From the NCBI GenBank assembly GCA_905178155.1, contig CAJINV010000011.1, forward strand, positions 1,201,982-1,265,981: 64,000 nt of DNA. Reading direction: 5' to 3'. Every line of letters starts with the position of its first letter. The first letter of the stretch is position 1. Of the stretch, positions 3,682 to 61,239 are shown in pieces. A program made the position numbers and the translations under genes. The notes under the pieces are model-generated. The model was not told where the DNA came from and searched no databases. It saw only the letters and a list, made by a program, of their open reading frames with translations. Origin of the DNA: Amoebophrya sp. A120 (taxonomy: Eukaryota > Protista > Dinoflagellata).

Positions 3682-6600
3682 ATGAATCTGTTACTGTTCT
3701 GGCACAGTGAGATCACCAAGGAGGAGGTGAAGGGGCATAATATGTACACGGTGGAAATCGACCCCACAGATTACAGGTACTTACTGCTTTTGCGAAGATT
3801 GCATGAGGAACAATTTTGGACATGATTTAATTATGTACGTACAAGTAGATGCTTTCATACTGCTCTGCATGGCAGGATGACAGATGAACAAGTGGGATGT
3901 CGTACAACCTCAATATGAAGCAAGAAATGCAAAATCGAAAAATCAAGAAAAACATTAAAAAAAACACACATCCAGGTTTACCCACATTTTCGAAGTCCTA
4001 AACCTTTCTGGCTTCGTCGACCAGGTGGTGAAAGTTGGCATTGTCAACGGCAACACGGGGCTCGGCGAGGTCGAGTGGATCACGTACCCAAGGAATGACT
4101 TGCTCCGTCAGAAACTGGAAACGGGCGACGTGAAGTACCCCGTTTGCCTCCACGTCACCTCCGTGAGCCCGGAGGAGCTGCAGCCCCAGGAAAAAATCCA
4201 ACCCGGGGAAGAGGAGATTGACGCAAAGCAGTTGTTGAGCACAAGGGGAATCGGACGGGAGCAGGACGATGATAGTTATCTGCCCTATGTGTTGGAAAAC
4301 CGAAAAACGCTGATCTGCAAGCGGGTCGGCCCCAGCTACGGTCGCCGGGAGCCGCAGTTCGATCTGGACGGGTTTCTCGCGGCCAAATCGGAACAGGACG
4401 GGGAGCCGCCAAACAAGAGGTCAAGGTCCAACAGCCTGGCCAGTAATACCCCGCAGATGTCACCCGTGAAATACTCGGGGGACAAGAAGCTCGTGCACTT
4501 TATCCAGAGGTACTAGCCATAGCCGCTATGTTCCTCTTTGAGTTTTTTGCTTTTACTTTTGTTTTGATGTTCACTTGGTAATGTTAGCCAGTGCCAGTGA
4601 CATCAGTTTCAATAGCCATCGATCTACTTGTGAGCGAATGCATTAATAGTTACTTGCGCCACATCTACATCAGGCGACAATTCCGTTTGTTATTTGAAAA
4701 TCAATTTTCCCCATCTAAAATCCACTACAGACTCCGTGTCAAGCTGAAATTCACGCCCGAGCAGCTGTACCAGGGCCATGAAATGCAGCTTACGCGAAAA
4801 ACCTTCTTTATGGAGCTGTCAGGTTTGAAATCGTCAAAGTTGAAATAGTTTGCCATGCATAAAATGCAACGCAGAAAGTGTCTGTCTTGCAGAGTAGGCA
4901 AGGGGGGCAGATTGTAAGCCTGTTTTGAGGTAGAAATAAAGCTGCTGAAGTAGCATGACAAAAGGCGACTTCCTTACCCAAACAGCACGACAGACTGGAT
5001 TTCGGATCTACCCAAATTTGTCATGCGCCACTTGGCAACGGGGTTGCAACTTTCATCCATTTTCTGCATTACAAGTTATTTCAACTTTGTCGATTTCAAT
5101 CCTGACACATCCATATTCTTTACCCGCGGCGAACTCGCCCTGGGCCACACCGGTCGTTAGCATACAGAAGGGTGAATTTCCAGTGAACAATTTGTATTGC
5201 GTGGCATGATGCATGGATTAATCTTCAGGTGCATGCGAAGAACTAGAACACGAGGACAACATACAAGAAGCCAGCGCGCCGCGTTGATGGGCTGCTTGGC
5301 TGGTGGCGCTTCCCTCCTGTGGACGCTTGCCGCTTGTTGCCCAAAGAGGCGCACCTGGTGGACTGCGAAGCAACGCAGGTGGCTTAGGGCGGTCTTACAA
5401 CACGACGCTGCATGATCCGCAGACTCGATAGTGGCGGATCGACCGGGACGAGGGCTATGCCTGTAAAGGGGGTCAAAGGTACTAGCTCAACATGTCAAAA
5501 TAGAGAAGTCGCGTCACGGGTTGTGGCTGCCTCGGCTTGGATATCTGGAGACAGGTTGCTACGGATGCTAGCATCGCCTGCTTTGCTTTGTAAGTAACCT
5601 CCTCCCAGCTGTGTTCCTGCCTCATCTTGGTCGGTTCCTCTAGTAGTCTTCTTTGACGTGACCCCCAGGTCAGGAATTCTCTTGGTGAATTTTGAGGCTT
5701 TGTCTTTTTGCGAAACTTTTTTGAAGCCCCAAACTCGGAGTCTCTCACGCGCTAGCGAATTTTGAACAGGCACCGGAACCCAAAATTCACCGGCGCCCTT
5801 TTCAAAATTCACCCGAAAATTCACCGAGCGCCCCTTTTCGACCGTGATAAGCAAACTTTGGCGCAGAAAAGTGCTCAAAAATGTGCACAGGTAGGCCCTG
5901 GGGAGTGGGGCCGAGGGGAAAAGACAAGCGCCCTCTGTTGCCCTCAGCCCGTCTATATTCTGCCGAAAAGGCCTGGGGAGTTCACGCGCCTGCCGGGTAG
6001 AGGCGTCAAAGCTCTCGGCCTGGTCCTTTCACTCGTTTTTTTGCGCCTTCTTCCCTAATTGCATGTGCTTCGCAGCCTTTCTTTTTAGCGTCTTTGCCGC
6101 GGCTGCTGCAGTGCTCTATGCGAGCACAGGGAGACGAATAGACATGGCCAAAGAACGGCACCCAGGCCATGCCTAGAAGCTGCCCGCCGCATAATAAATT
6201 AAGCCTTGACTTCTGCGGTGTGCAGAACCCACTTCCCAGAAGGGCAAGAGGGATAATGCCCCGGCGGACTCATCTGCAATCTGTCATGCAAAATTCACTA
6301 CAAATTCGCCACTTCTCATGCTAACGGGTGTTAAAGCTGTAACTTCTTTACCCGCGGCGAACTCGCCCTGGGCCACACCGCCCCGGCACCGCATATCCTG
6401 AGTAAAAACGTACCCACACCAGAGTTGTAATGCAGATTTGCAAAGACAGCAAGACTTGTAATGCGCATCCGCATGAGAGCCATTTCCAATCGTGATGTGG
6501 GATTTGTGATGCTGTGAACAGGATGAGCAGATGAATCTGTGATGCGGCTGCACTTGCTAACCTGCACTACACTGCAGAGCGCAATTTGTCATGCGTGACT

Positions 6601-8500
6601 CACAAAGCTCCTAGGTTTGTGTTGCAAAATCCCCATCCTGACTCTGGTGTGGGTACGTTTTTACTCAGGATACCGCAGCCAATTTTGTCACCCTCGCAGA
6701 TTGCGCTCGGATCTCCCGAAATGCCACTCTCGCCGCTGATGCGACAGACGCAGGTGAAGGAGAGGAAAGAGGGCATCAACTACGTTTTCTTCAAGGTATA
6801 GGGATCAGTACAACTTTTTTTTGTGCGGCTAGTAATGCGCATCCGTCTCCTGCCATCTAAGGCGTAAGCGGAGCGCACGCTGCATTTATATGACTTTTTT
6901 CAACTACCAAGGAATGTGACCACCCAGGCAGGACGAGCGTAAGCTAGTGTCATGTTGATCATCGCAAACCAATCTTTGTCTTTATGCAACGAAACCCCAC
7001 AACAGGGCGCCGCGCTCCCGAAGCTTCCGGACGGCGTGACAGAGGACAACGACCCGCTCCGGACTCGTCTCTTCTACGTGGAAGACCCCATCCTTTCCGG
7101 CGACCTCTCCGGCAACGACGGGCCGAGCAATCTCGTGAGCAGCGAGGCCAGCGGAGACGACGGCAAGCAGCTCCCCGGCCTGGGCAAGATCTACGTGAAT
7201 GAGAAGGGGGAGAAGATCTACCCGGACGTTCCCGAGAACACGAAGATCCAGGTGCAGTCGAAAAAGGGCGAGGAAACGACCCGCGTCGTGATTCCCGGCA
7301 CGCCCGAGCTGACCGCCGTCCCCGGCGGCAAGAAGGGCAAGGGGGCGAGCCCACACATTTTGAAGCCCCCACCCGCGAAATTGTCCAAGCCCGTGCCGAA
7401 GGCCGAGGCGATGGCGGCGAGCAAGAGGGAAACTTCCGGCAGTCCGGAGCCCAACAAGGAACGAAAATCTGGGCGAAAATCCTCCATGCGACTCGGGAAA
7501 GCGCCGTTGTGGGACGTGCACCCGAATATCGACGTGATTCTCTGCTGTCCACGACCAAAAACGCTGGACAAAATCTTCGCGCAACTCGCAAACTTCGGCG
7601 TCAGGCGAATTTTTGTCGTGGGCGCCGCGAAGAAGGTATTGGGTGGTTCTTTATGTATAGCAAGTACATCATCTGCATCTGTATGTGATGTCCAGTAGCT
7701 GTGTATACTTGTTCATCGATCCCAGTCATACACTGCGTATCGCTTCCAGCACCTCGTTTCGACGAGGAAAGCTATCATGGTCCTCATCATTTTTTCATGC
7801 TCGAGAATAGAACAAGTTTAAGATGAAATTCAAATTATCCAAACCGATTCCTCCATCACAACAGGTCGAGCCGTCCTATTTCAGCAACACGAAAAAACTG
7901 TCCCCCGAGAACATCGAAAGAGCGCTTCTCGAGGGTCTGTCCCAGTCCGCGTATTACACCCGGATGCCGATGGTCCGGGTGTTGCCGAAACTCAGCATCA
8001 CGGAATTGTTGAAGTCCGGGTTCGGCATCAACAGCAAGATCTCACCCAAGATCGAGAAGAACCGCGGCCCGGAGCTCCCGCCGGACCCGACGGACAAGTC
8101 GACGCAACTCACCTTCGCGAACCACGAGGAAGCTTTCAGCGACGTGATGACCAGTGCCCAGATGGAGGAAACGACGATGTTCGCAGTTCGGGGGAAGACT
8201 TGTGCGAACAACTACCAGTACGGGAGTCTCAACCTAGTCGCGCACCCGTCCTCCACTTCCAGGAAAATCTCCGACATCATCTGCGACGACACCTACGCCG
8301 CGTTTCGGGGCGGGTTCTTGGGGAAAAGAGCCTACAACCGCATTGTGCTCTGCATCGGACCGGAGGGCGGCTGGACGGACCACGAGCTGGAACACGAATT
8401 AACCGCGTTCGAACAGGTGTCGCTCGGGCCCCGGGTCTTGAAGACGTCGGACGCCACGCAAAGTGTGTTGACCTTGCTGTACGAAGAGCTCGGGATCTAG
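3682..8500 (+). CDS. RsmE-like SPOUT RNA methyltransferase with long insertions; exons approx. 3682-3776, 3976-4509, 4674-4808, 5121-5152, 6381-6393, 6678-6795, 7006-7635, 7865-8500
   Basis: N-terminus MNLLLF...THIFEVL...VKVGIVNG (PUA-like). Central ILCCPRPKTL...FGVRRI...KVEPSYF...LEGLSQ. C-terminal IGPEGGW and SLGPRVLK are RsmE signatures. Four GT-AG and three non-canonical introns give one open frame. Confidence 0.8.
4809..5115. mobile_element. TIR introner, family A (307 bp)
   Basis: TATGGAGCTGTCAGG...CCTGACACATCCATA with ~39-bp imperfect TIR and TSD TTCTT (4804-4808/5116-5120). Removal gives RKTFFTRGE. Confidence 0.9.
5153..6343. mobile_element. ~1.2-kb TIR-bearing insertion flanked by a 37-bp direct repeat
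   Basis: Imperfect TIR CGTTAGCAT..GAAG..GAATTT..AGTGAA at ~5155 and its reverse complement ending ~6326. Direct repeat at 5116-5152 and 6344-6380. Confidence 0.75.
6394..6672. mobile_element. TIR introner (279 bp) with a perfect 32-bp TIR
   Basis: TATCCTGAGTAAAAACGTACCCACACCAGAGT and its exact reverse complement at 6641-6672; TSD CCGCA. Removal gives APAPQPILS. Confidence 0.93.
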
Positions 8501-17175: not shown

Positions 17176-20100
17176 ATGCAGGAGGCATCCTCGTCGTCTA
17201 CCGCTGCGGAGGAGCAGCTGCTTTTGCTTCCACCGTCGGAATCAACGGGCTCAGTAACTACTGAAAAGAGCGAGGAGTGTGACGGGACGACGACGAGTGT
17301 GAATTCCTCAGAACATCAAGCGTGTGAAGAGTCTGTGGAAGAACGCAAGGCAGCGAAATCGGCTACTAGTAGTAGTAGTACGAGTAGGTCGAGCAGTACA
17401 ACTGCCACTGGGGCTCTCTCTTCATCTTCCGCTACTAGCAATACAACATCTTACGGAAGTTTCGCGCGACGGCCTAGTACACGGGCCGCGTCAGGCAGCG
17501 GGAAATCTTCAAGTAGACCGCGTCGTGAGCCCTTCAAAATAGTGCTGGATCAGTCTCTGTATCTTCCAAGGCACGGCCCTCGTTCGGGAGCAGACTCATC
17601 ACGCGACGCCAGGAGAGCTTCATCAGCGCAAATACACATACCAGAAACAACGCCAAAAGAGCAGGACCGGCATCCGGACCAACATATTCCAGGAGATAAA
17701 AGCACGTTTCCCAAAGTCCGCATCAGCACGGCTTCGTCGCCGGTCTCGTCGACCTCACCCGGAGACGCGACGAGACATAATCTTTCGAGTCGGAAAAAGT
17801 CCTCTTCGCTCCGCTTTCAACCACGGTCTAGGGGATTCACGGCCGAAACGGTGACGTCTGAAGAAGAGCAGGCCGGGAATTCCGGACGCCGGGAGGCTGT
17901 TCCGGGGTCGAACTCACGGCACGACCATCCGGAGCCCGACCTCATTGGGGCGAGCAAAAGTTTTGAGCGGGTGGGGGGAGACACCGGGGTTTTATCTGCA
18001 GTCAAGGAAGAAGTCGTGGTAGCTACGAGGTCGGTGAAATCAACACTGCACAGCTACACGGGCGGCGAACAAAACTCTAGAACCGTTGGCCAAGAACTTC
18101 CTGCGAGCTACCCATCTGCTTCCGTCATCATGTTCGACGCACAGGCGCAGCCGGGGATTCTCACCTCCGATATGGCCTCGTCAACACCGAATATGGTGAA
18201 TCAAGGACCGCTCCTTGTCGCCATACTGAGTGTGTTCATTTTTTGCTTCAACAGCGAGCTACTCCAGGACCTGTCGAGTGAGGTGTCACCCCTCTGCAAT
18301 CTTTGTTGCGCACACATGAGCGGATTGTTGTTTTTCCCGTGGACGAAATGGGCATCGAAATGGAGGAACCGGAATATGCGTTGGCAAAGACCTGGCGGTG
18401 GTGACCACGAGGACACAGCGGGTAGTTCTCCCGTTCCCATTCCGTCACCCGGTGGAGCAGGGCCCGCCCCTTCTCAGGCCGGTGATTCGCAGCAGCAGCG
18501 CCCAGGTGCTGGTGTTGGTTTGCAAGTATCACCAGAACGGGCGACGCATTTGGAGGCTGCTGGGTTACCAAAGCTTCGCGCCGGCGGTTCATCTGGACAG
18601 CACAGCGCGAACAACAAATCGCTGCAAAATAATCATGCTGGAGAACAAGGACATCAGCAGAATCAGCAATATCTTGACTCGCTCTACTCGGATCAGGAGG
18701 AAGAGTCGTCGGTTTCACCGGGCGATTTGTCCCCATCGAGGAAGCGGGGCGATGTGTTCTCAAAATCGGATGTTAAGTTTTGGCAGAAGGCGGCGTTTTT
18801 CTCCATTCTGATCATGAGCTACAACTGGTGCTTTTTGAAAGCGATGGACACGCTGCTCGTGAACACTATGTATGGATCTGTTAGGATTGAAATTGACAAA
18901 GTCGAAAGATTTGTGATGCACAAAATCGATGCCAGTTGGAGCCTCAGTTTCCAAGTGGTGCATGACAAATTTCGGCAGCACCAAGATCCAGTCTGTCATG
19001 CTGTTTGAGCAAAGAACGCTGCTCCTGTTATGCTACTCTGGCAGCACAAGCACATCGCCTTCGCCTAAACAGGCTTGCAATCGGTCTCATATGCCTCCTC
19101 CCCAACGCAGGCCATGCGTGCCCTACATTTTATGCATTACAAATTTTTCGATTTCGTCGATTTCGATCCTGGCACTCCCATAAACACGGTCACGGCTCTC
19201 TACCAGGTGAACGTCGCACTGTGCGGCATTTTATGCATTGCAAAAGTATCGTACTCGTAGTAATTGGAGTCATGCATTACAAATTGCCTTCCCAAGGTAA
19301 AACAGCATGACAAATTTGATTTCTCATGCTGAGCAAATTTGCCATGCGATTTATACTAGTACGATACTTTCGCAAGGCATACATTTTCGAGTACACCCGC
19401 GGACAGGGGTGTACGACGTTCAAGATCAGCGGCACGGTGTTGTGTATGCTAGGTGCAGCGATCGTAGCCTTGTTTTCGCCCACGCGCGGCACCCCCGGCG
19501 ACGATCCGGACGAGGGACCGCGCGGCCACGTCGCGGCCGCCCTGGTGGGATCCTCGTCCGGCACGGGCGTTGCTGCGCACTTCGGGCCGACGGCGGCGGG
19601 CATTGGGTTTAGCATAATGGCCGCAGTTATCCTGTGCAAAAGTATCGTACTCGTAGTAATTGCATTTCTGCATTACAAATCTCTTTCTCAAGGACAAGGT
19701 AAATCAGGAGCATTATAAATTCAATTTGTAATGCTGGGGGAATTTGTAGTGCAATTCCAATTTATATATACTAGTGCGATGCTCGTGCATTGCATAGCAG
19801 TCGGGGCGGCTACTTACGCGTGTCTGCTGGTGGAAATGGTCGGGGTGGAAAAGGTGCGACTTTTTCAGAAAACGATGGTGTAGTTCGTGCTGAATTTAGA
19901 AGAACGGATGATTTCTATTTGTTCTCTTTGGTTATATGTATCAGCCTATTCATCTTCCTTTTCCACAGGCCCGCAACCCCGCCGCCTTCTGTGTGAACTT
20001 TGGTTTTGCGATCAGCTTTTGTCATTTGGTTCTCGTCGTGCCCTTTCTCTTCTTTGCCGACTGGATGCACTGGGAAGAGCTGCGACTCCCGCCCAATCTC

Positions 20101-24700: not shown

Positions 24701-27700
24701 AATTTATTTTAACCGATAAAGATAATTTGGTGCCGGACTACACAAACACGCGCGTACAGCTGCAGCAACGATTTTTGGGCGGCAAGACACACATGAGCTT
24801 GTTTAAAGGGATGTCGTCATCGTCGTCTGCAGGTTCTAGTGCAATTGCAATTACATCCTCGGTTGTACAGACGGAGATGATGAGCAATCAAGAGCACCAA
24901 TTTGTCCTCGCTCAAAACAACACTTTTGCACGTCTATCAAAATAAAAAATCCCCCCTCCCCATATCGAACAGGAAATTTGTGATGCTGGATTTGCGTACA
25001 CAAATCAGATTTGTCTTGCTGGAGAGGACTGCAGGCCCACATCAAGCCTGAGTACAGAGGTTTTGGCCTAGGCGCTTAGCATGAGAAACGTCTGCGCTGT
25101 AGGCCCAACAGCATCACAGACCGCTTGTATAATACGGCGAAGCCTGTGGAATTGCCTTCTTGCAAGACAGACGTGATTTGTGGTCGCAAATCAGCATTGC
25201 AAATTTTCTGCGCCGTACCTTTTCGATATGGGGAGGGGGGATTTTTCCTTACGATAACGTCCCGACGTGGATCATGCGTCCAGCATCCAGCACCTGGACG
25301 CCGAACATCAAATAAATCTTCGGTCTGGCGTCTCTATTTTCGGACCTGCAGAACGTATGAGGTCCTCAGATGTGAAGTTTCCAATTTTTCCAAAAAAAAA
25401 ACTATCGATGCATAAATAACTATGTAGTTCAGTAGCTAGCTAAGGTGGAGCGGTTTCAAGGTCTCCGGCTGCGTCTCGTAACGGCGATCCGGCATCTCGG
25501 CGAAGCAGGAGCTGGCCATTTGTATGGAGTTTTGAAAATCCTAGTGAGCGAGCATTGAAAAAGCAAATGTCTGATGTGGTTCCCTAATACATGACTCCAG
25601 TAGTAGCGGTCTGATGCACAATCGTCGACGAGATCGGAGAAATCTAAGCTCTACACGGCTCTTACGGGGCACAAATAGGGGTCCTGGAAAAAGGTTGCTC
25701 ACAAATGTCTAGGATCAGTATCTGATGGCGCCGCTCGCTCGATGTGCTCTACGAATACGACCCGCCACGGCTCTCAGAGTCGGCTCTTTCATGTTGTTTC
25801 GATTTACGATATTCCGATCAGGCTTGCACGTAAATTTCGAACGATACGCTCAGGTCGATGCTCTTAGTTTCTAGGCAACGAGCGTTCCACATTGCTGCTT
25901 CTTATTCACAAATCCACATTCTCATCAACCACAGGATCCTCGTCTTTGCGCCCATGCTCACCTCCCTCACCGCAGGTCGTACAGAAGCCGAAATAGAGGA
26001 CAAGGACTGTAGCGACGGCTTGGCGACGAGACCGTTCCGAGATACGCAGCCGGAGACCACGCAACCGCCCTACCTGAGCTAGCTAGTTCATGAGATAGAT
26101 ACTAAATTACCTAAAGTAGCTAGTTTTTTTTTTCGATTTTGTTGAAATTTCACATCTGAGGACCTCATAGAACGACTAAACCTTCGGTCCGCCGTCTCTA
26201 CTTTCGGACCGATCCTCCGGTTTCGGTCTGCCGTACTGAGTGGAAAACTTCACAAATACAAATATCTGCAAAAATTGGTCTTTAGAGGCTTCACGGCTGC
26301 TGGGAGGGGGCCCAGGGTCTGCGAAACGCGACGCCGGTGAGTCGAACACCAGCACGGCAACAGCGCGCGGCGTTGTTCTGTCCGGCAAGGTCCGGAGGGT
26401 TTGGCGTCGCTGAAGGCCATACCGGACGACGACGAGCATGCATGTACTTCAAGAACAAAATCGGAAGGCTGTTGCCTTTCCTTTGTGTCGCGTCCGCCGA
26501 TGCGGTTTGTCGTTTAGCCCGTGATTGGAGCAAAAAAACGCTATTCCCACTTGGAAACTTTCCACAAATGAACAGACCCGACCCCTCCGGAGACCCACAA
26601 ATCTGGGGCCCTTCTGAACAGCCAAATTCCCACTTCCCGCTTGGAAACTTTCCACAAATGAAAAGGCAGGGGGGTCCGGCGACCCCTGCCGGAGAGGTCG
26701 CCCGCGAGCATTTTTCTGCGTCATTTTGATGCGATTTCCGCCTTTCGGCGATTCGCCGCGACCTATTACTGCCTCCGCCGGCGCCGCATGGCGCCGGAAT
26801 TCCGGGCACCCTGGCGTGGCCCCGAGAGCCCTAGTCCCGCCCTGCTAAGCGGCCCGCGCTGGTGCGACTTTGGTCGGGTTAAATGGCGACCGCCTGAGAT
26901 GAATGCTCTGGCGCCCCTCCCAAGGATGCCCGACAGGGCCTGAATTGCTGAAAAGCATAACACTGGGCGCCTGTTTCTCTGCAGTTCTGCCTTTTAAGCA
27001 TCAATTTTTGCAGATATTTGTATTTGTGAAGTTTTCCCCTTAGTATGCCGTCTCTATTTTCGGACCGATCCTCCGGTTTTGGAAGGACCAGCGAAGACTC
27101 TATCACTACCATCTCACCTACTTGCAGGAAACTCGAAAGGCCCGCTACGCCGCTACGCTGCAGGAGAAACTCGGCCAGAAACTCGCCTCCACGGACGGGG
27201 CGAAGCGGATGCGACTGCGGTTCGAGAACAATCTGCCCGTCGCGCTCGCCCAACCGAAAATGCGCTCTCCGCTGACGTATCAAATGTAAAAATGTCTGGG
27301 TGGTCTGGAAGAGTGCATTTTTGTCATGCTTGTCTGGCATGACTGTCAAATCTCTCATGCACGTTACCCAAGAGCACCACTTTTCTGTCATGCAGAAACG
27401 CAGTTCGCCATGCAGAATAGGCAACACCTAGAAGCTCAGAAACTTGTGATGCTGAGCCAGCATTTCTGGCCTCATCATGAGACGCCACCCAGCATCACAA
27501 GTTTCCAGACCCAGACATTTTTACATTTGATATGACGCTGTGCGAACTTTGCTGGAAGACCGCGGTGTACAAGGATAAAAAGACGAAGCAGCCGGTTTGC
27601 AGCCAGAACTGCCAAGTGGCGTTGCAACTGTACCGAGACCCCATGGGCCTGGAGAACGACAAGTACGGGGGGAAAGGTGCAAACCAGGCTCTGTGGAAAA

Positions 27701-27726: not shown

Positions 27727-27784
27727 AGAGGATGGCACGATGGATATTCATCATTACTTTTTATATGCTTTTGCGATATGTTCA

Positions 27785-28121
27785 AATGTTGTTGTGCAAT
27801 TCTGTGCGCAAATCAGCGGAAAACGTTGGGTAAGAGTTCCCGACGGAGACGGAAGAACCTACGAAACGGAAGAAGAGAACCCGGCGCGTTTCCAGATACA
27901 ATGGGAGGCCTTTTGCGAACACTCAGGCAAGGAGGAGGCGTGGGTAGCAGGCCTACTATTCACAAAAGAGGAGGGAGAGTTGTGGGTTGCCGCTTGAGGC
28001 GAGACAGTCGATGTCTCGAGGAAAGAATCGCTTGTGTGTACATCCGAGAAAAGAAGATTTGACGAAAGAAAAGAAACAAATTTTACACCCGGATAGACAC
28101 GTAATGAATGAATGAATGAAT
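27785..28121 (+). mobile_element. 5'-truncated non-LTR retrotransposon 3' end with an (AATG)n tail
   Basis: Encodes ISGKRWVRVP...FCEHSGKE..WVAG...LWVAA*, homologous to the C-terminus of ORF 17-754. Tail AATGAATGAATGAATGAAT at 28103-28121. TTGCGATATGTTCA is duplicated at 27771-27784 and 36367-36380. Confidence 0.78.
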
Positions 28122-28691: not shown

Positions 28692-28727
28692 CCCACCCTC
28701 GATCAAGATCGTTCCCTCCCTGACAAA

Positions 28728-36200: not shown

Positions 36201-36367
36201 CAGGTCGGCACATTTTTGGCCGGTCTTGAGCGTCCCAGGAAAGTGTTTTACATCTCATTCGAGAGAAAACGCAAGTTCTCCTGCAGCTTGCAGTCGCAAG
36301 CGGTCCACGCCTAGGACAAGGGTCATCTATAGAGTTCTATTCTACGCAGAGAGAGAGATTGTAAAAT
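36201..36367 (+). repeat. Right terminal repeat B2
   Basis: Appears identical to 28397-28563 over 167 bp. Confidence 0.95.
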
Positions 36368-37070
36368 TGCGATATGTTCATGTTGAATATATGCGCCGTG
36401 TAATAGTGACGAACGCCGCGAGTACAACGCGTAGTAGATCTGAAGTCAAAGAAGCACAACTTCGACGAGGCTCCCGCTCCTGGATGGTGCGAGATGACAG
36501 ACGCGATGCACCACCATCGCAAAGAGCCAGAAGGAAAAATGGTCTATATCTGCCTTTACCGGAATCATCCTTGTCGGCTGTTGTATCGTGTCATGTTCAA
36601 CAAGTAGTCGTCCCTGACCCTGGAGTTATAGAGAGACCGTGAGCAAACGCAAACCGCACGCGTTCGGATTTGGAATTGGAAGCTTTAGTTATTTGCATGA
36701 CTGAGTAGAAGAGGTAAAAGTACTTACGTTGCTCGGTGCTTATTTTCCACTACCACACTGCACAGGTAGTCTCCTGCCTCTTTCTTTCATTATGGTTCGT
36801 CTTCGTCTTTTCGTGGTAGCGGTTTTTTGCTTCATCTACATTTTCAAAGAAGCACCCATAGCAATAAACCTCTGGTAAATAAAATTAGCCACGAAGAGGT
36901 GGGCGATCTACGGCCGCATGTAGAAGTTTGTGAAACTGAATGAAATACTGCGAAAGCACTGATGAAAGAATTTAAATTTCCAAGAAGAAATCTAGGACCT
37001 TGTTTGCGGCCTTAGTCGTGTACTTCTACGTGTACCTGATTTTTGTTTTTCAGTTTGTGAAATAAAAATA

Positions 37071-45108: not shown

Positions 45109-47734
45109 ATGGCCACCACCACAATGAAAGCGAATCGGTCTGCTCTGGTGACGAGAACTCGACCGATGCCTTCTGCGATAGCCACTACACCGTTGCTCCC
45201 GCAACAACCGGGAACAGCGACTTCACGCTGCACTACGAGGTTCTTGTCGTTTTCCCTTTTCTCAACTTCCGCGTCAACATCGTCTTCAGTTCGGACAAGA
45301 ACTCCCAAGGAGAACACATCCCCTTCGCAACATGCCCATGAGCTGCTGCACCGCATGCCGAACTCTACCCGCAACTTTCTACAGTCAAAGTTAAAAGAAG
45401 CAAACCAAAGGAGAAGAGCGATTCTATCCGTCGAGGCAGAAAGGAGGAAACGCCACCTGCGGAGCCTGCATATGCATTGCAAATGTGTCTGGGTCTGGAA
45501 GGTTGCAACTTGTAACGCTGTCTTTGAATTCGAAATCGAATTCCAAGAAAATCTGTATTGCAGGACCAACAACAGGAGTCCAGTTTGTGTATACGCTGAG
45601 AGGGCATTTGTCATGCGGAATAGGCGCGAAGAAGCCCTCTAAAAATCTGTGATGCTAGACCATGCATTACAGGCATCGCGGATCATACAAAATATGCATG
45701 ACAAGCCTGGCAATGTTCCAGACACAGACATATTTGCATTTGATACTGCATCTGACAGAGCAAGAGATCGCTGCGGACGACGCTGTGCACTCACAAATTG
45801 CTGCGTTGATGATGGAAAACGACAATGCAGGAGCTGATGACGGAGATGAGACACGGCCGGATTGTTCCAAGAACATCAACCCTCCTGAGCAAATAAACTA
45901 CGTGAAGAACAGCCACCCGCTCTCACAGTGGCTCACTGTTGCGGATGACCTGCTCCAGAGGTCCGCTACGCTCACAACCGCAGACGCGGTGCTTGCCCTG
46001 CGGTGTTTCTACCACGCCGAAATCGCGGACTCGAATCTGGTGCATGCGCTAGTTGAGGTATTGGTGGTGAGGCTGAAACAGAGCCTGGAACGAGCGGAAA
46101 TGGTCGTGGAAAGAAGTGCTGTAGGTGGTTTAAGAAGTGGGCACGGAAGAGGTACAACAGCGACACCAGGCTCTTATTCTTTCATGGAAATAATGGTGCC
46201 AACATCATGTGGAGATCAGGGCGACACAGAAGATCCTGAAGAATTTCTTGCGGGCGTAGCAGCGGAGTTGGAGAAAGTGGCTGCGTTTGCGAGAGAAGTA
46301 GGAACAACTCAGACGCTCGGAAGTTGTGCTACGGCAAATCAGTTGGACTGCGCAAAGGTTGTAACAGAAGATGAAGGGGCGGCGACTGAACTGACAGACC
46401 GGGATCATGAAAGCAGCGACATCAAAGTAGATCATCATGAGAATGATTTACCTGATCACGCAAAAACTATATCACCTAGTACCAGACTCGCGAACACGGT
46501 GACAGTAACCTTCCTAAGCCCTGCTTGCGCACGTAGACTGCGGCGCACACTAGTAGACTGCGTTAACGCCTTTTTGCGAATCGCATTCCGGACGTTGAGA
46601 CAGAAGCAGGACCGGACTCTTGACAGCGGAGGACGGGGAGCAGCCTTCTCTTCGACGTCGTCCAGGACGAGCGGTGTCAACATAAACGGCGGCTGCACGA
46701 CGACAACCCTTCATCGTTTCACGCTGACAGGTTTTCTGGTTTCGCTTGCGATCGACGATCGTCATTCTTGCAAAGAGTTCTTGTGTACTGAGCGCAGCAA
46801 TCTATCGTCTCTAACGGCCGCCGCACAAATTCCTGACGGGGAGGTAGGCGCTACTCACGTTGAGGGCCTCCAGACGAAGAAAACACACGCGAGGATCTTC
46901 GAACAAGACCAAACCGATCGCAAACGCTCGCAAATCCTCACGGTGCTTTCGACCCAGCACCTGAGCATCCTCCCTCTCCGTGACCTCCTGAGGCTCCAAG
47001 CCCGTGCGGAGCACGATCCGGAACTGAAGTCGCTGTACGAGGCGTCCTGCTCCCGGGAACGGGCCATGCTGTCGGCCATGGGCGTCAGCGAGGTTTTTTC
47101 GCTCCTGTGGCAGGAAACAATAATGAACCAGCTTGTTCTTTCTGAAGAAGATAATTATTCCGAAGCCGAGATGAAGGGCGCGACAGGGCGGACTCTAGCT
47201 GAAGAGGACCCAGGGCCGTTCGCGCGAAAACTGCGGGCAGTGCTGAATTACAAGCTAGCGGCGCTGACCGTGGAAGACATTCGCCGTTTGCCGCAGCGGT
47301 TCCAGATTTTAGAATTGCTGTTACGAACAAGTGAGGAGAAGATGCGAACAAGGCAGGGAGCAAGCACATCATCTACTTCAGGCTGTAGTACCAGCACATC
47401 TGCACACGGAGCAATAAACCTTGCACTGTCGCCAGCGGAGTTTGCCTTCGCTCAGAACCTGGCCACCTACGCTCGACAGAACGTTTCCGCCTGCTCCTCC
47501 AAGGATCTGGCGCTGCTCGGAAAAGCAATGGAGGGGCGAAGCTGCATACCACTCGCGCAGGCTATTCGCCTGCATTTGATGAACCAGTGCAGGAAGGAAG
47601 AACTCAGGTGGACTTCATCTTCAAATTCGAGATCAGGGAGCTCTATTGCCGCTCCTATCAAGAAAACACAGTCTTCTGTTTATTTTCATTCGCCTTTCAG
47701 TACAACTACAACTACACAAGCTGCGTTTGCGTGA
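45109..47734 (+). CDS. Hypothetical helical protein; exons 45109-45470, 45751-47734
   Basis: Two ORFs are joined in frame (RSLHLTEQE) by removing the introner at 45471. Confidence 0.7.
45471..45745. mobile_element. TIR introner, family F (275 bp)
   Basis: TATGCATTGCAAATGTGTCTGGGTCTGGAA...TTCCAGACACAGACATATTTGCATTTGATA; TSD CTGCA. Confidence 0.92.
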
Positions 47735-49721: not shown

Positions 49722-52700
49722 ATGTTTGACACCATGAGACCTCCCACAGCATCCCGATCACCCACCACGACGAGCGAGATCTTTTTGTACTAAGCAGGAC
49801 GTCGCGTCGTGTGTTGAAAACACGATTTTATTCCCTGGTCATTTTTGAGACCTGAAGACCGCGAGGATCAGACACCGATCTTCACTTCGCCCGTCATGCC
49901 GTCGATCAGCGTGGATTCCATGCGGATCGACGAGATCGAGCAGTCGCTGGAAAAGAACCCGACGCAAACGGCGCTGTGGCTGCGATACGCGAAACACTGG
50001 GAGAACACCGACGAGGTCAACGCGCTTGCCGTGTATAACGATGCGGTCCGGCGTTGCCCGCACGTGGAACTGTGGCGGCAGTACATCGAGTACTGCAAGC
50101 GGTGCGTCACGGTGAAAGGCGTCGTTGCAGTCATGCACGCGGCGATCGACGTGATATCCCACGACCACCGATGCGGGGATTTTTATGCAATGCAAATTTC
50201 CTGTACATGTACAAAATGCATCACAAATTATGTCACAACCAACTTGGAGGATGCCATTTGTCTTGCTGAATAGGATTCAGTGAAAGCTTTGTCATGCAGA
50301 AACCGCATTTGTACGTCGTGTACGGGAAATGTGCTGTGGATAATTTGTTTCAGGAGTACATCGCGCTGCTGAAAGCCGTGTGGAACTACCAGTACAAGTA
50401 CTATGCATTGCAAAAGTATCGTACTAGTATAAATCGCATGACAAATTTCCTCAGCATGACAAATGGAATTTCTCATGCTGGTTTGCCGCAAAACAAAGAT
50501 TTGTAATGCATAACAGCAATGACTACGAGTGCGATACTTTTGCAGTGCATAAGTACCGAGACGAACTGATTCTAGACGACTACGACCCTGCTTTGTTACT
50601 GGGCGACCCAGACGCGGATGCGGCAAAACTGGCGGAAGAGGAAACGGAACTTGCGAACAAGTGCGGCGGGCACATCCCGCTCACGCACGACGAGGACGAG
50701 TCCATTAAGTGGATCGCGAAAAAAGCTCCCTCCGACAGCTACATATCGGTCAAGACGAGGCTGTCCCTGGAGCACATCCGAAGGCTATCGAGACAGGTAC
50801 AGCTACTTGGTATATTCTAATGCTGGATGTAGTTGGGTGTGGACGTTTTTTTATTTCAGATTCCCATTCCATGTTGGAAGTCGTGGAACTTGTTTTACAT
50901 GAACGGAGCAGTTGCTGTTGCAGTCTGCAGAACGTACCATACGCTTATGACCGTAGTGGATGTTGAAGATACTTCGCCATCCTTTTTTTAGTTGCGATAC
51001 AGCACGACCGCGATTCTTGCGACCTGTTCTGACTTGAGAGCATTTTTGACAGGTTGTACTTGTCATGCAATTTTTAATGTCACACGATCTTGTTGCCATA
51101 TTAAAATGACTATCAGGCCTGCACCAGTCCTTCTTCCTGCGTCGACAAGATTGTGAAAGCTTACGAAACGTTCGAGGACAAGCTGATCGGGCACAAACAT
51201 TCCCTCTCCAACACGATGGACAGGGAGGGTGTCGTGAAGGAATTTTACCACAAAATCACCAACGCGAAAAACGTCTACCAGAAACTCGAAAAACTGTACC
51301 AAAACGTCGACACGCTGACCATCCCCCAACCCGAAGTCTCCGTTTTGTCCAAAACCCCCTCGAAATCGACGAACCAACTGCTCAAATGGGCGGAACTACT
51401 GTCCAATTGCGAGCAGATCGTGCAATTTGAGCGCGGGAACCCGTTGAAGCTCGAGGTCGCGGATTACCAAACGCGAGTGATTTTCCTGTACCAAAACATG
51501 CTTCTAATCACCTCCTGCTTTGCCGACTTCTGGTACAGCTTCTACCAGTTTCTCTACACCTTTTCTCCGGTGAAAGCCTTGCAGGTTTTGAAAATCGCCT
51601 GCGAGAAACTCCCCAACGATTTGTTCCTGCGGTTGAGTTACATCACCAATTTCGAGGAGCTGATCTACAAGAAGCACTTCAACGCGACGTTGCTCGGCGA
51701 TGTGATGAACAGCCAAGCAAGCACTTCCGGCTCTTATCAAATGCAAATATGTCTAGGTCAGGAAGATTGCTGAGGTTTGTGATGCTGTGTCTGCTTGACA
51801 CAGAAGGTGTGCCATGCAAGGCTTAGCATCACAGGTTTTGAGACGGTTTTCCAATGCCTAATCCGCATGACAAATGCCTTCTTTCGGCGACAGGAAAAAG
51901 AGCTTCATCTTTTGCTGTCCAAGCATGACAGATTTTTGTGTGGTCTAAGTATGCATCACAAGTTCGCATCCTTACACAAGACCCAGACATATTTGCAATC
52001 AATAGCTCTCTCCATGAAGCGATCTTCGACATTGAGAATTCGCCGGAATATGCGACGCTGTTGAAAGATATGGATTTGGTGCTGCAGAAAACGGCGAAGC
52101 AGAAAAATAATCCCGACGATCCGGACAAAATCGAGTTTGATTTTGACGAGGAGGATCCGGAAATCGAGATCCCCCACACCTCGAAGTTCCGCCAAGGGAG
52201 CAGCAAGGAGCAGAAATACAAACTCGTTTTCACGTTGTACGAGAAACTTTTGCAAGAGCCGTTCTTCGAGGGGGAGCAGTACGCGCTGGTCATCATCCAT
52301 TTTTTGAATTTCATCCGTCGCCAAGCGGGTCCCGACCAGTGGCGGGATTATTTGTTGAAAAAAGTCTTCATCAACAACCACCAAAAGTTGACCTGGGAAG
52401 TGTACGCCAGTCAGGCGTTGGTGGAATACCACTGCTTCGGGGAGAGGGATCGCTGTGCGCAGATTTACAAAATCGGTATTAAACAACTTCTTCGTCTTGG
52501 TATTGCTATTGGATCATGACGGCTAGTTCTTCTGTTATTGATGCTGATCAACATGAGATTTTGCTTTTATTTTTGCAGACCTACACTAACGCTGGAAATT
52601 GATGCAGTTTCGGTTTCCAGCAAATTAAAACCTCACGAATTCTTCTATACAGCCCTAGACCGCTTCCGCACGGTGGAGACTTTTGAGCCGTCTTTAGTTG

Positions 52701-55700
52701 CGTCCTTCGTCAACTTTCTGATTTCGGTCAACGATTTAGCCGCCGCCCGGGACGAACTTACCCTGGCCATGCAGAAGTGCTACAAACTCCTCCGCGAGAT
52801 TCAGCACAAATCCGACAACCGAAACCAGAAGGACAAGCGGGTCCAAACCGAGAAGCAGAAACTGGGGCAGGGCTTTAAGTTTCTCTTTGAGAAATTGATC
52901 CGATTACAGCAGTATCAAATGCAAATATGTCTGAGTCAGGAAGATGTCATGCTGTTTTTGCATGACGCAGAAGGTCTGGCATGGAAGCCGTAGCATCACA
53001 GGTTTCGAGAAGGTTTCGCAATGCCTAATCCGCATGACAAATCCCGCACTTCGGTGACAGGAAGTGGACATCTTTTGCTGCCTATGCATGAGAGATTTGC
53101 GTGTGTTGTGAAATGCGCATCACAAGTTCACATCCTTCCAGACCCTGACATATTTGCAGTGCATAAGCAGTCCTACGGCGACGACCAAGATTCCTTTACG
53201 AAGATTCTGTATGCACTGCAAAAGTAACGCACTAGTATGAATCGCATCACAGATTTGCTCAGCATGTGCATGATATAAATTGAGTTTGTAATGCTGATTA
53301 GCGTAGTAGAGATGTAGATCTGTCATGCATGAATGCGATTCGTACGAGTGCGATGCTGTTGCAGTGCATAGTCTGCAGCAAAAAAACCAGTTTCTCCTCG
53401 AGTCGGTCCCCGACGTGGCGCTGGTGCAAGCGGAGAGCTTAGTCGGCGACCATATTCTGTCTGACGCGCACGAGGACGCGGCGATCAACGCGTTTTTGAA
53501 CGACACCCTGACGACCATGCTGCACGTCAGCGGCGATCCGACCGACCCGGCAGCTGGTAGGATTTTTTATAAGTACTTGTCTTCTGGATGTGGTCGTTCT
53601 TGTTCTTCGCTCTGCCGTGTGTAGAAGTCTCGAAAGAGAGGAAGTAGTTCCTCTGTCTCTATGTGACATTGACATTCTGCAGCTCCAGGATATAAATTTC
53701 TAACGTCGAAAAAACATCACTATCAGCCTTCGAGGACGAATTCCAGCAATTTCAGCAGCAACAGCAGCAGCAACAACAGGGTGGAAAGAAGGGACGGGGG
53801 AAGCGGCAAAAGGGAAAGACGTTGTCCCACTACGACATGCGGGACGCGTTTCACAGCGACAAAATCATCCACACCTACCACCTCGACCAGGACTACAACC
53901 GACCCAACTTCTTGCGCGCGAACCTGCTCAGCTCCATACTGCAGCCGGGTGCGAACAGTTTCTTCTCCTGCAGCTCCGTGCTCCCCTTCGCCGAGGCGCA
54001 AAGCAGGTATGTTGTGATATACAATGAATCACGACTTCCTCTACTGACAATTATGAAGACACTATGTTTATGCAGCTACGTCGGAGAGCGGCGGCGCCGC
54101 CGTGTGAAGATGGTGCGTGTCAATGTTTATAACAACTCAAGAAAATCAAATTTTCCTTTATCCGCCATAGGTTCAAGTTCCAACACCTGACCCCCAACAC
54201 CAACAAACTGAACCCAGTCGCGTCGAAGAATTTTGACAAGTACAAGAAAGCCACCGACGCCCAGGAGGAGAAAGAAAAGGAGAAGGAAAAGCAGGAGCAG
54301 CGGAATAACCGAGGCAGAAACAGGAACAACAAACACAACGACCGCAATAATAATAACCAGGGTGCTGGCGGCGGCGGGCTCCTCACGGTCGGCCAGGTTC
54401 GGAGCAAATCCGGCTCTTTCGCCGAGGACGCAGAAAATTCGAAGGAGGTTGTTTCGAGCAAGGCCGCCGCGAAGACAACTGCAGCTGGGAATAAAACCAC
54501 AGGAAATAATCTGCTAAACAAGGAGGGCTCAGCTGCATCCGGCGCGGAAGGTGAACAGGATCAGGATCAGATTGCGCTGATGGTGAAGCAACGCATGTTG
54601 GCACAGTTTGAGGACAGCGATGACGACTTGATGCAGGGAATCAACTTTCGGGACGAGGAAGTAGACGTAAACACCGCCACGAAGAAAAAGCCCGCTGCGG
54701 CCCCGAAAAACCGCGTAACCCGACCGGACACGGCGCGGATGCACGCGTTTAACCCCATGAACGCGGTGCAGATTGCTTCGGCGGGACAGAACCTGGGCCA
54801 AGTGTCGAACATTTTGCCGAAGGTCTTGCTGGACCTCCAGCAAATGCTACCGAAGCACAAGGTTTGTCATTCTCTACTTGCTTTTTAGTTTTTTATTCAT
54901 TCTGCGTTTGCGTATACGCTTTTGCTTATGCTAGAAGATGCCTCTTGGTCTTGAAGGTGGTAGATTTATTGGAGAGTGAGTAGATGAAGTACAAGACACA
55001 GTCGCAGATTGACTATATACTTTTTTTTGTTCCTGCTCGACAAAAACCCGCTTTTTTTCCTATCGCGACCCACATACTATCAAAAAGAAATGTCCTCCAC
55101 ACCTAACCTCACAGCAGGTGCTGAAGGGATCAGCCCCGGACGTGGACTACATCATGAGCGTACTGCAGACGGTTGAGGTTCCCGAGCTTCCCCTCGACCA
55201 GTTCTGCAAGGCGCAACCGGACCCGGGCAGCGGGTTGGGCGGCCGAAGCAAGGACGCCGGGTTTATGGGCGGCCTCGGCGGCGGCTTGTTCGGCGGCGCG
55301 GGCGCGCGGGTCACGTCCCTGGACGAAAACACCGGGATGATGCACGCCGTCGGTGGCTCCGTACACAACTTTTTGATCGAAGGCGCGGTGGATGAAAGCA
55401 GGTTGGATTTGATCTTGATTTCGCAGCTGTTTTATATTTTCTTCTACTGGATATAGATGCTCATGGTGTAGTCTGTAGTCGCAGCTGCATGCAGCTCCAT
55501 GACATGTTGACACATGTGTGGCGCTTGTGCTTTCACGAAGATTTCTGCATGGTGTAAAACAATAGACCCGGCGGCGTGGTCCCAATCGCTCATGTATTGA
55601 TATGGTCAACATATGAACACCAGGTACCGAATACGCGGGGCCGGCACGGGGCAATCCGCTGCGCTGCGCGAGCCCCGTCGGGTGAAAAAGGCTCCCGGCG

Positions 55701-55828
55701 GTGCGAAAAAGGAGGAACCCGGGGAAAGTGACCACGAAGCAAACGCGGAAATGTCGGCCATGCGGGAGAGGCTGAATGTGAAAAGACGCAAGGTTCAAGA
55801 TATCGTCAAGGCGGAGATCGGGGCTTGA
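49722..55828 (+). CDS. CSTF3: Cleavage stimulation factor 77 kDa / RNA14 (HAT/Suf repeats); multi-exon with five introners plus GT-AG introns
   Basis: HAT repeats (LWLRYAK, LWRQYIEY, FERGNPL, WEVYASQALVEY). RFKFQHLTP, RPDTARMHAFNP and LP...KGSAPDVDYIM match the CstF-77 C-terminal motifs. The start codon is inferred. Confidence 0.88.
50184..50342. mobile_element. TIR introner (159 bp) with a degenerate TIR
   Basis: TATGCAATGCAAATTTCCTGTACA...TGTACGGGAAATGTGCTGTGGATA; TSD ATTTT/ATTTG. Confidence 0.85.
50402..50551. mobile_element. TIR introner, family B (150 bp), reverse orientation relative to 19232
   Basis: TATGCATTGCAAAAGTATCGTACTAG...CGATACTTTTGCAGTGCATA; TSD AGTAC. Confidence 0.93.
51735..52004. 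mobile_element. TIR introner, family F (270 bp)
   Basis: TATCAAATGCAAATATGTCT...AGACATATTTGCAATCAATA; TSD GCTCT. Confidence 0.9.
52913..53165. mobile_element. TIR introner, family F (253 bp)
   Basis: TATCAAATGCAAATATGTC...GACATATTTGCAGTGCATA; TSD AGCAG. Confidence 0.92.
53210..53370. mobile_element. TIR introner, family B (161 bp)
   Basis: TATGCACTGCAA...TTGCAGTGCATA; TSD TTCTG/GTCTG. Confidence 0.9.
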
Positions 55829-58350: not shown

Positions 58351-59084
58351 GGCTTTGCCTTTGCGTATATACTACGTACTCAGCTGCAGCGACGCTCTGT
58401 CTGTTCTTTGTTTGTACAGGAAAATGACAATGAGTGTGATCCGTCATTCTCATTGCAGCTAGGCTCTGCCTCGCGTAGATGTACTGTACTTGGTTAGGCC
58501 CAACCCCATGGCCGATAGGGCGATTACCCCCGCCGAGGTCAGGGATAGCGATCACCCGAATCCAGGTCTTCTCCGTCAGGTTCCTTCGTATTATTGGCAA
58601 CCAGTTAGAAAGACCAAGATCTACTCCTATATATTCATGCTGTGGCTCGTGTTGGTCCTAGTAGTTGGTCAAAGATCGAAGCCGTTGCAGTTGAAGTTGT
58701 ATATATGATTGTTCAGACTTCTGTTCGCAGCAAGAAGTCACTGCTCTGTTTGACTTTATCTTGGCTGTATTTTCACAGATCCTAGGGAAAGGTGAAGACC
58801 AGAACTTCCTCGCCAAGAAAGATTTCTTGTTGCGCAACAGTCTATCACTCTGGATATGGAAGGCTGGAGGCGAAGGCGCCATGATATAACTACAAGCTTC
58901 GCAAGAACAAGAAGTCGATAAAAAGATACAAAAAAAGAATATGCGGAGTCCACGTCGGGATATCTTCGTCAGTTGCAAGCCGCCCGTTTAGTTTTACCTA
59001 TTGCCCAAGAGCTGCAGTAACTTAAAAACGAAAACCTTCTAGACACTCACGTTAAAATAAAGTCACTATATCAAGCACACCATC

Positions 59085-61239
59085 ATGGACAACGTGATGG
59101 GTCGCCGCAAGGGCGACCACTTTGAACGGTGGGACCCCAAGTATTTTCGCGAATTGGAAGAAACGAGGTACGGCTTTCTCGCCCAGTGCGACTACATCGT
59201 GCGGTTTCTCTATGGGAGCGTCAGGATCGAAATCGACAAAGTTGAAATAATTTGCCATGCATAAAATGCAAGGCATGAAGTGCCTGTCTTGCCGGGATGG
59301 CAAGTGGGGCAGATTGTGAGCCTATTGAGGGTTTGGGATAGAGCTGCTAAAGGAGCATGACAAAAGCAGTCTTCTGTGCCAAAACAGCATGACAGATTGG
59401 ATTTCGGTGCTCCGAAAATTTGTCATGCGCCGCTTGCTAAGTGAAAGTGGGTCGCCAACTGGTATCGGTTTTATGCATTACAAACTTTGACGATTTCGAT
59501 CCTGACACTCCCATATTATCGCGTTGTGCGTAAAGGACACTTTTTGGTTCTGTTGGAACGCGTCCACGCGGTATTTTTTCCACAGCGTGCCCTTCGAAGC
59601 GGACCAGTTATGGGAAAAGGAAGTGGAGGGAAGGAGAAAAGAGGAAAGCGAAACAGAAAAACAAAAACTACGCACTCATGATGCAAATAAAACAGAAGGC
59701 AAAACCGATGGTGACCAGACGCTGGCTTCGCCACCCGCAACAGCGAAGTCATCGAAGATGAACCAGGTCAACAGAAGTCGCGATGACACGACGAGCGAGC
59801 ACCAAGGTCATAGGGATCATGTCGAAAACGCGTCAGCCAGTGCCACTTCCTCAGGACCGACGAAGTCATCGGCGCAGGACGAGGCGGGTTCAACAGTTGG
59901 CTCTACTCCTGCAGCTTCACATTCATCCCCTTCCCCGAATGAAGATTCCGTCAACGTCAACAAGCTCACAGCAGATGTTGATTCCGACACCATGCAGGCG
60001 GAACTCGCTCAAAACTCGCCGGCAAGACGAAGGAGTGCATCCAAATCTTCGAAGAAAAAAGGAAGCACGACCACCTTGTTCATCCTGCGTGCACTCACCG
60101 TCTTTGCCCGACTCGTCATATTCCTCGTAGCTTTCGTCTACATTAATGTCAACGACTTTGCGACCAAGCAAACCAAAGAAGAAATAACGAGGAACGCATC
60201 TTCAATCTCCAGCCGGCTGAAGCGCTTCTTTCTGAACGTTCTGTACCGAGCGAAAGTCATCCTTTGCCATGTTTCCAGCCTCTGGGAAAACGAGATGTCC
60301 CCAAAAATCGAGGGGCTGCGACGCAATTACAAGAAGTCCTGGCGGGTGACGGACCGAAAGTTTTGGGAGGTGGTCGTTTTCCGGCACAGTTACTTGACCT
60401 CGACGAAAAACGATCCTGCTCCGGAGGGCCAGTACCAAATCAGCCGCTGGACAATTTTGGACAAACACGCGCAGGTGCACTTCCGCGCGAGACGCTTGTC
60501 GCAGTGGCTGTGGGTGAACAGTGGCAGGGTCGTGCGGTTCTGGCTGCTGCTGTGCATAGCGCAGGTTTTGTTTGCGGGCTCGAAGCGGGTGATCTTCGCA
60601 AGCCTTGTGGATATCGTGGGAGGAACAGGAATATCCTCGTCGCATTCTACAAAGAACAGAGCAGCTGATCATGACATTTCGATCCTCAAATGGGCACTCA
60701 CTTCTACGGATGAACCGGGCCGCCTGATTTTTGACGATTTCGCGGAGTTTTTAGGGACGAGTTCCGGCGGGTTTTTACACACGTTCATCTCTCCGCCCAC
60801 AGCTGCTTCCACCACCGATGGCACAAGTTTCATGCTTTCCGCCTACACGATCTTCCTAGAAAATTTTAACGTTCCTGCCGCTGAAGGTCAGCTACGGTCT
60901 TACCTCGCAATTGTCTACAACCTGCTCACGCTCGTTTTCGCGATTGGTACCCATTTTACCCTGACCGCCGTCGGAGCAGGGGTGCGCGTGTTGAGCTTCG
61001 CGTTAAAGGCGGTTTTGTTCTACGAAAACATCTTCCTCAACGCAGTGTGGAATCACTATTGGACGTCTGTTGTGCCGTTACTCTTTGCGACCCGTCTTAT
61101 CTTCGATATGAGTTCCCATTGCAACGGTTTATGTAGTGCGCCGTTCCAATTCATCGAGAGTGATGCGGAAAAGAAGGCGAAGAAAAAGAGAAGTTGGTGG
61201 ACCAGTTACGGAAGAAAAAATTATTGGTCCTCCTGGTAA
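59085..61239 (+). CDS. Hypothetical membrane protein; exons 59085-59210, 59521-61239 (a possible extra last exon 61986-62019 via a GTAAG donor at 61236)
   Basis: MDNVMGRR...YIVRF joins ALCVKDTFW after introner removal; several TM segments. Confidence 0.7.
59211..59515. mobile_element. TIR introner, family A (305 bp)
   Basis: TATGGGAGCGTCAGGATCGAAATCGACAAAGTT...AACTTTGACGATTTCGATCCTGACACTCCCATA; TSD TTCTC/TTATC. Confidence 0.92.

Follow-up and report, generated by a model that had tools for sequence, protein, structure and literature searches.

By what route does a cell restore the reading frame of exons that are interrupted by segments lacking conventional splice sites? The question is raised by a 64,000-nt stretch of the genome of Amoebophrya sp. 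A120, a parasite of marine algae (contig CAJINV010000011.1; hereafter the window), in which 16 elements that begin TAY and end RTA, with inverted ends and flanking direct repeats, interrupt coding exons. Over 60% of introns in Amoebophrya are described as non-canonical (Farhat et al., 2021; PMC7789003), and GT-AG ends are missing from tens of thousands of its introns, with the route of their removal left open (PMC7789003, PMC11282704). The window elements are introners of the class reported by Farhat et al. (2021), as a first-pass annotation of the sequence had rightly proposed and as A120 protein records and that study bear out. The class is already known; the questions addressed here are whether, at which level and where exactly the elements are cut out.

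Precise removal of the elements from transcripts

The elements are precisely removed in six of six tested cases. Transcript data consist of cDNA contigs assembled from four runs of one sample in one study; their RNA nature is presumed, and the contigs skip six GT-AG introns. All six covered elements (five in the gene for CstF-77 and the one at 59211) are absent from these contigs, each together with exactly 5 nt, i.e., one copy of the repeat, in agreement with the removal predicted by the first-pass annotation. The elements and the GT-AG introns are skipped in the same contigs, and the 13 joints listed all correspond to one or the other. Assembled contigs lose rare forms, so minor junctions could go unseen, and two raw-read RNA runs (X8 and X9) contribute one read each over the stretch.

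Protein records extend this picture. The spliced CstF-77 frame matches record P0001 over 1202 of 1202 residues, and retention of any single element would truncate the product to 125-668 aa. The largest CstF-77 exon has two protein matches, one from A120 (100%) and one from A25 (58%). The spliced model of gene B is identical to P0003 (901/901 aa), that of gene A matches the last 484 of 484 residues of P0009, and the A25 orthologues are colinear across the element sites. For the 10 elements that have no transcript joint (4809-45471), the case is made by protein records in five and by the reading frame in the other five (genes C and D). The open frame of gene D, for example, is 811 aa with the 45471 element removed vs 207 aa with it kept; a homologue search with gene C gave no match. 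The earlier claim that deletion of the element plus one repeat restores the frame in every case holds locally for 4809, but gene A as a whole also needs a 17th removal, of a 1,228-nt segment without GT-AG ends that the earlier list does not include.

Anatomy and families of the elements

We searched the window for segments that run from TAY to RTA, have inverted ends and lie between matching flanks. Thirteen of the 16 elements have a perfect 5-bp direct repeat and a terminal inverted repeat (TIR) score of at least 16 (10 shuffled windows gave one such match), and a tolerance of one mismatch adds the other three (50184-50342, 53210-53370 and 59211-59515). The scan recovered the elements of the first-pass annotation, with lengths of 150-814 bp and ends of TAT...ATA in 15 and TAC...GTA in one. 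A 5-nt repeat is present in all 16, with a single mismatch in three. BLAST places the elements in 9 groups at a coverage of at least 50%, or 7 once two distant members are merged, consistent with the earlier count of at least seven families. Three groups have more than one member in the window, and members of the same family occur in both orientations. The elements at 4809, 18867 and 59211, for example, form one family in which 18867 is inverted relative to the other two. At 18867-18874, a 4-nt duplication (TATG twice) makes an inner, perfect GTATGG donor at 18870.

Folding predicts end-to-end stems in all 16 elements (z -2.6 to -14.4), unlike in eight GT-AG introns (z -1.8 to +2.0). None of the 16 has the GT-AG or GC-AG ends of U2-type introns, and sliding the junction inside the repeat yields GT-AG, GC-AG or AT-AC in none of them in any register, as the first-pass annotation had noted for GT-AG. 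Every one of the 16 is located in a coding exon; such exons account for an estimated 56% of the remaining DNA (rough p of about 1e-4). The same annotation correctly assigned them to six genes, with five in CstF-77. Each element has stop codons in all three forward frames. DNA contigs matching a 15.5-kb stretch number 11,743 and are piled up on the elements, which marks these as repeated families. The two open reading frames (ORFs) within 26234-27045 have no Pfam match (not every short element frame was searched), no larger TAY...RTA element or transposase of up to 15 kb was found in the window (weak long matches, with scores of 14-21, were taken as chance), and the window has no Rfam match.

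The motif TGTNATGC occurs 50 times, in both orientations, in the 4,997 bp of the elements (15 of the 16) vs five times in the 59,003 bp outside. TGTNATGC / GCATNACA is common to unrelated families, with a density in the elements about 120-fold that outside, and is frequent in the copies of a relative too (248 in 16,010 bp, among the matches listed). Judged from the sequence, it is a candidate transposase-binding site. The elements appear to be non-autonomous DNA transposons, i.e., introners that resemble miniature inverted-repeat transposable elements (MITEs). Integrases of the long terminal repeat (LTR) type duplicate about 5 bp at their target. The fixed 5-bp repeats and the TAY ends common to unrelated families appear to point to one type of transposase, and A120 introners with TIRs and LTR-integrase-like ORFs have been described (Gozashti et al., 2025; PMC12130899).

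Presence of the elements in genomic DNA

In a DNA-type run (X1), introns and intergenic DNA are evenly covered (depth 42-56). Contigs cross the borders between flanks and elements at a depth of 40-46, equal to that of the flanks, and one contig spans the whole of 53210-53370 at a depth of 42. The lack of an element-free DNA joint was judged from contig continuity and depth in this single run, which represents a single life stage, is possibly the source of the assembly itself and would drop rare alleles. The elements are kept in this DNA at single-copy depth, and therefore removal most probably occurs at the RNA level. The first-pass annotation had also entertained removal from DNA, in the manner of the internal eliminated sequences (IESs) of ciliates. 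The X1 contigs do not support that suggestion, and DNA excision at other stages is unlikely.

Position of the cut within the repeat

Where the two repeats are identical the cut cannot be placed, and the three mismatched repeats give the junction information; they are a route to the true cut from existing data. The transcripts retain the left base at repeat position 1 (53210) and at position 3 (59211) and the right base at position 5 (50184), the last in agreement with the A25 residue. If the cut is at a fixed place, retention of the left base at 1 and 3 and of the right base at 5 puts it after repeat base 3 or 4.

With a cut after base 4, the intron reads N-TAY...RTA-NNNN. We compared this with a profile of 18 ordinary donors in the window (seven RNA-supported, four from a protein record, three from the clean RPS6 frame and four by eye), which have GT in 18 of 18, A at +3 in 15, Y at +4 in 15 and GTAY in 13. 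Against this profile (+2 to +6), the elements score +2.1 bits if the cut is placed after base 4, the one register with a positive value; the remaining five give -1.9 to -5.9. The earlier view that there is no splice-site consensus stands for the repeats, but the element start may supply a partial donor (N-TAY). We treat the N-TAY register as a hypothesis, suggested by three junctions and one coincidence. BLAT slides joints toward partial GT-AG matches. The gene models of Farhat et al. (2021) were built with BLAT, and the nine commonest non-canonical classes in their Table S4 share a T at +2, in A120 and A25 alike (PMC7789003). We dropped this excess of NT-NN classes as support for N-TAY, as it may be an aligner effect, and it is not counted here.

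Copies in a related genome

The family motif was identified at at least 130 loci, all in one related metagenome assembly. Among the matches listed, there are 127 distinct flanks, of which 120 have a clear far end. An exact 5-nt repeat, the fixed-length target-site duplication expected of a MITE, flanks 82 of these 120 copies, a repeat with one mismatch 22 and one with more mismatches 16; exact repeats of 3, 4, 6, 7 or 8 nt flank none. Across the 104 copies with at most one mismatch, the 22 mismatches fall at positions 1-5 in the numbers 7/2/4/4/5. The centre is not depleted (4/22), which weighs against a need for homology. Recognition of a hairpin plus repeat, as the first-pass annotation had put it, thus fares unevenly: a role for the hairpin is plausible given that 16/16 elements fold, while one for the repeat is not shown, with 22 of 104 listed copies mismatched. 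As to which repeat copy is exonic at the mismatched loci, Pfam matched few flanks and a guess from AT bias gave mixed answers; one of 10 flank ORFs had a match, without homologues beside it.

Proposed mechanism

We propose that the elements are removed from pre-mRNA by a relaxed major spliceosome that reads +2 to +4 and takes its 3' site 4 bases past the hairpin, a proposal to which we give even chances. In a stronger form, which we rate somewhat short of even, the Amoebophrya spliceosome would have dropped the chemistry of G at +1 and of AG ends, reading U-A-Y at +2 to +4 and using the hairpin as a ruler (one base before, four after). Insertion would generate the 5-bp duplication, and the TIRs would then pair and draw the element ends together. 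A 5' cut one base ahead of the hairpin would give an intron start of N-UAY, which could supply the +2 U, +3 A and +4 Y of host GUAY donors and leave +1 free; the 3' cut would fall four bases beyond the hairpin, in any sequence. One plus four makes five, and the target site would be restored exactly, at any site and in either orientation. Exact restoration would explain the spread through exons at no protein cost.

Several features of known spliceosomes are compatible with this scheme. In A120, 83 of 89 spliceosomal proteins and the U2, U4, U5 and U6 small nuclear RNAs (snRNAs) were found, while U1 snRNA and snRNP27 are listed as not found (PMC7789003). Loss of SNRNP27K in fungi accompanies donors with U at +4 (PMC10581693), and Fritillaria relies on its U2 spliceosome to excise TIR-derived non-canonical introns (preprint, 10.1101/2025.08.15.670264).

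A number of observations weigh against the relaxed spliceosome. The informative junctions number only three; they are compatible with a cut after base 3 as well as after base 4, and each also fits joining within the longest identical stretch, with the fixed cut favoured about 2-fold. Under N-TAY, the +1 bases in the window are G5/T5/C4/A2, with no preference for G. The inner G-TATGG at 18870 is not used in P0003 (a record that favours the longest frame), and the 1,228-nt segment of gene A does not start with N-TAY and is removed all the same. The elements showed no branch-point motif, and the putative donor sits within a strong stem. The TAY ends may be just a transposase requirement and, since U1 proteins are present, U1 snRNA may be divergent rather than lost. 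In the relative, a small model, for which the window served as training data, called the coding strand with confidence in 45 of 102 scored copies. Among the matches listed, these 45 are split 23 vs 22 in orientation and have no base bias at any repeat position (G in 10 at position 5 and in 17 at position 4, A in 11 at position 3, none of them significant). At one copy mismatched at position 3 (L046), the family pattern looks by eye closer to the right-copy residue, a weak sign that would speak against the fixed register. The lack of a G+1 or AG preference in the 45 copies argues against a GT-AG reader that is just imprecise, and in favour of a geometric rule.

Other routes of removal

A geometric rule could also be executed by a spliceosome-independent nuclease and ligase that recognise the hairpin base and cut at set distances from it (2+3 or 1+4 bases), a route proposed for euglenids. 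We consider this possible but rather doubtful. The absence of sequence preference at the cut sites, the use of both orientations, the strong stems in 16/16 elements and junctions that permit a cut after base 3 all suit such an enzyme, and the nonconventional introns of euglenids, which leave as circles (PMC11282704), are a precedent. It leaves unexplained, however, why the element ends match host donors at +2 to +4 in an allowed register. The euglenid geometry, in which +4 to +6 pair with -8 to -6, differs, and the accessible text of the cited literature names no such enzyme. Joining of RNA guided by the direct repeat itself, anywhere in the longest identical stretch and with a hairpin that merely brings the copies close, seems to us improbable. 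It would accommodate the joints at 50184 and 53210, which fall inside a 4-base identical stretch, the removal of the gene A segment between 37-nt repeats despite its damaged hairpin end, and the use of the outer, repeat-defined end at 18867. The joint at 59211, by contrast, has only two identical flanking bases and yet takes a single form in three of four runs, and central mismatches are not depleted among the listed relative copies (4/22).

Removal might instead precede transcription or be an artefact of the data. IES-like excision from DNA ahead of transcription would fit the TIRs and repeats, whose anatomy is typical of a DNA transposon; a strand-symmetric DNA reaction would go with a central cut, as after base 3, and the evidence on this point comes from one DNA-type run of unspecified life stage. 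The unbroken X1 contigs across the borders and over 53210-53370 are at odds with such excision, as is the loss here of both TA-bearing ends, where IESs leave one TA behind; we regard it as very unlikely. We give still less credence to the idea that the joints are template switches of reverse transcriptase over hairpins with short repeats, and that real mRNA keeps the elements. A hairpin with a direct repeat is a setting for this artefact, and the transcript data come entirely from the cDNA of one study. Against it, retention of any one element truncates CstF-77, which is the sole A120 match in the homologue search and is conserved with A25 across the element sites (59% identity), and one and the same contig lacks both GT-AG introns and elements.

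If the relaxed spliceosome is correct, RNA shape can replace terminal intron bases that are thought essential for splicing chemistry. In the stronger form of the proposal, any 5-bp-duplicating element with TAY ends would be a perfect intron anywhere, in either orientation. The relaxed spliceosome would explain the harmless colonisation of exons by transposons and provide a rule by which genes of these parasites can be modelled correctly. The N-TAY register yields one sharp prediction, by which a relaxed spliceosome can be told apart from a new nuclease-ligase and from homology-guided joining.

Features of the window

The elements and their host genes are listed in Table 1. The 1,228-nt segment in gene A has a TIR-like right end, which ends GTA at 6339-6341, and a damaged left end. 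Pfam Suf was matched in three CstF-77 exons.

Table 1. Introners and related features of the window, with the basis for their removal.
Feature	Position	Strand	Flanking repeat	Gene	Basis and remarks
Introner, 307 bp	4809..5115	+	TTCTT	A (RsmE-like RNA methyltransferase)	Removal agrees with protein record P0009
Extra non-GT-AG segment, 1,228 nt	5116..6380	+	37-nt direct repeats (5116, 6344)	A	P0009 match requires removal
Introner, 279 bp	6394..6672	+	CCGCA	A	P0009; TIR 30/30
Introner, 316 bp	18867..19182	+	AACAC	B (membrane protein)	P0003; additional left-end TATG
Introner, 150 bp	19232..19381	+	CATTT	B	P0003 model
Introner, 169 bp	19628..19796	+	GCAGT	B	P0003 model
Introner, 322 bp	24935..25256	+	ACGTC	C (WW domain)	Frame only
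Introner, 814 bp	25356..26169	+	GAACG	C	Frame only
Introner, 812 bp, TAC...GTA	26234..27045	+	TGCCG	C	Frame only
Introner, 255 bp	27278..27532	+	TGACG	C	Frame only
Introner, 275 bp	45471..45745	+	CTGCA	D	Frame only
CstF-77/Suf gene	49896..55828	+		CstF-77	5 introners and 6 GT-AG introns; 1,202-aa product = P0001
Introner, 159 bp	50184..50342	+	ATTTT/ATTTG (mismatch at position 5)	CstF-77	Joint 50178>50343, 4/4 runs
Introner, 150 bp	50402..50551	+	AGTAC	CstF-77	Joint skips 155 nt, 4/4 runs
Introner, 270 bp	51735..52004	+	GCTCT	CstF-77	Joint skips 275 nt, 4/4 runs
Introner, 253 bp	52913..53165	+	AGCAG	CstF-77	Joint skips 258 nt, 4/4 runs
Introner, 161 bp	53210..53370	+	TTCTG/GTCTG (mismatch at position 1)	CstF-77	Joint 53205>53372, 4/4 runs
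Introner, 305 bp	59211..59515	+	TTCTC/TTATC (mismatch at position 3)	F	Joint 59208>59519, 3/4 runs

Three introners of gene C lie inside tandem coding repeats of about 11 residues (25320-27090). Within CstF-77, the GT-AG intron at 50797-51116 starts G-TACAGCT like the TIR of the damaged element, contains TGTNATGC and is flanked by ACAGG/TCAGG; this intron is possibly an ancient introner whose ends read GT-AG by chance. The intron at 54862-55117 has a tandem acceptor (CAG-CAG), of which the downstream AG is used in one of four runs.

Elsewhere in the window, a retroelement-like block (28100-36370) has three or four long ORFs (515, 595, 321 and 799 aa), without Pfam or Protein Data Bank (PDB) matches, and split direct repeats (28119/28561 and 28394/36198). 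By eye, it looks like a tyrosine-recombinase (DIRS/Ngaro-like) retrotransposon. The intergenic region at 42697-43190 is an array of 73-bp units, direct and inverted, with nested palindromes. A GC-rich (68%) block of 2 kb at 56300-58400, whose minus strand holds an open frame of 637 aa without a Pfam match, has low transcript cover in one run.

Comparison with known systems

The A120 introners of Farhat et al. (2021; PMC7789003) have inverted repeats and direct repeats of 3-5 nt, start with TAT, are about 240 nt long, fall into strain-specific families and are RNA-supported. The elements of A25 start TTA-R-R. The window elements share with them an Amoebophrya host gene, RNA-supported non-GT-AG ends, a TIR that starts with TAT (15/16), a direct repeat and the organization into families, and in the publicly available A120 models of genes A, B and CstF-77 the elements are already spliced out. 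In the accessible text, Farhat et al. show 5-bp repeats in one example, leave the border within the repeat unknown and report no clear splice signature (PMC7789003). Here, by comparison, three junctions place a fixed cut after either base 3 or base 4, the repeat length is exactly 5 bp, and a match of N-TAY to host donors is proposed. We found no published register or removal mechanism for Amoebophrya introners in a literature search that left aside subscription journals and figures.

The introners of Gozashti et al. (2022; PMC9860276) are likewise transposons with TIRs and target-site duplications that act as introns, with a cut inside the duplication that leaves the mRNA unchanged. They use real GY/AG sites, carried or co-opted, whereas the A120 elements need neither G at +1 nor AG. 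Ciliate IESs, too, are short and TIR-like, interrupt exons, have TA at their ends and are removed precisely, but they leave the DNA and one TA stays behind; the A120 elements stay in the DNA and leave one 5-bp repeat.

Euglenid nonconventional introns resemble the A120 elements in a terminal stem that joins the ends, in repeats like target-site duplications and in a mechanism that is open (PMC11282704). Their pairing starts from +4/-6, their junctions have a pyrimidine-purine consensus and their products are circular. Pairing in the A120 elements would start at +2/-5 or +3/-4; the stem begins with TAY, which lies 1-2 bases from where the cut is allowed, and there is neither a junction consensus nor a junction base bias. 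The introns of Fritillaria borealis (PMC11282704; preprint) are MITE-derived, with TIRs and target-site duplications, and lack GT-AG in a lineage without a minor spliceosome, as is the case here. They have preferred ends (AG-AC, AG-AT) and their dependence on the spliceosome was tested, whereas the ends of the A120 elements vary freely and the role of the spliceosome is putative.

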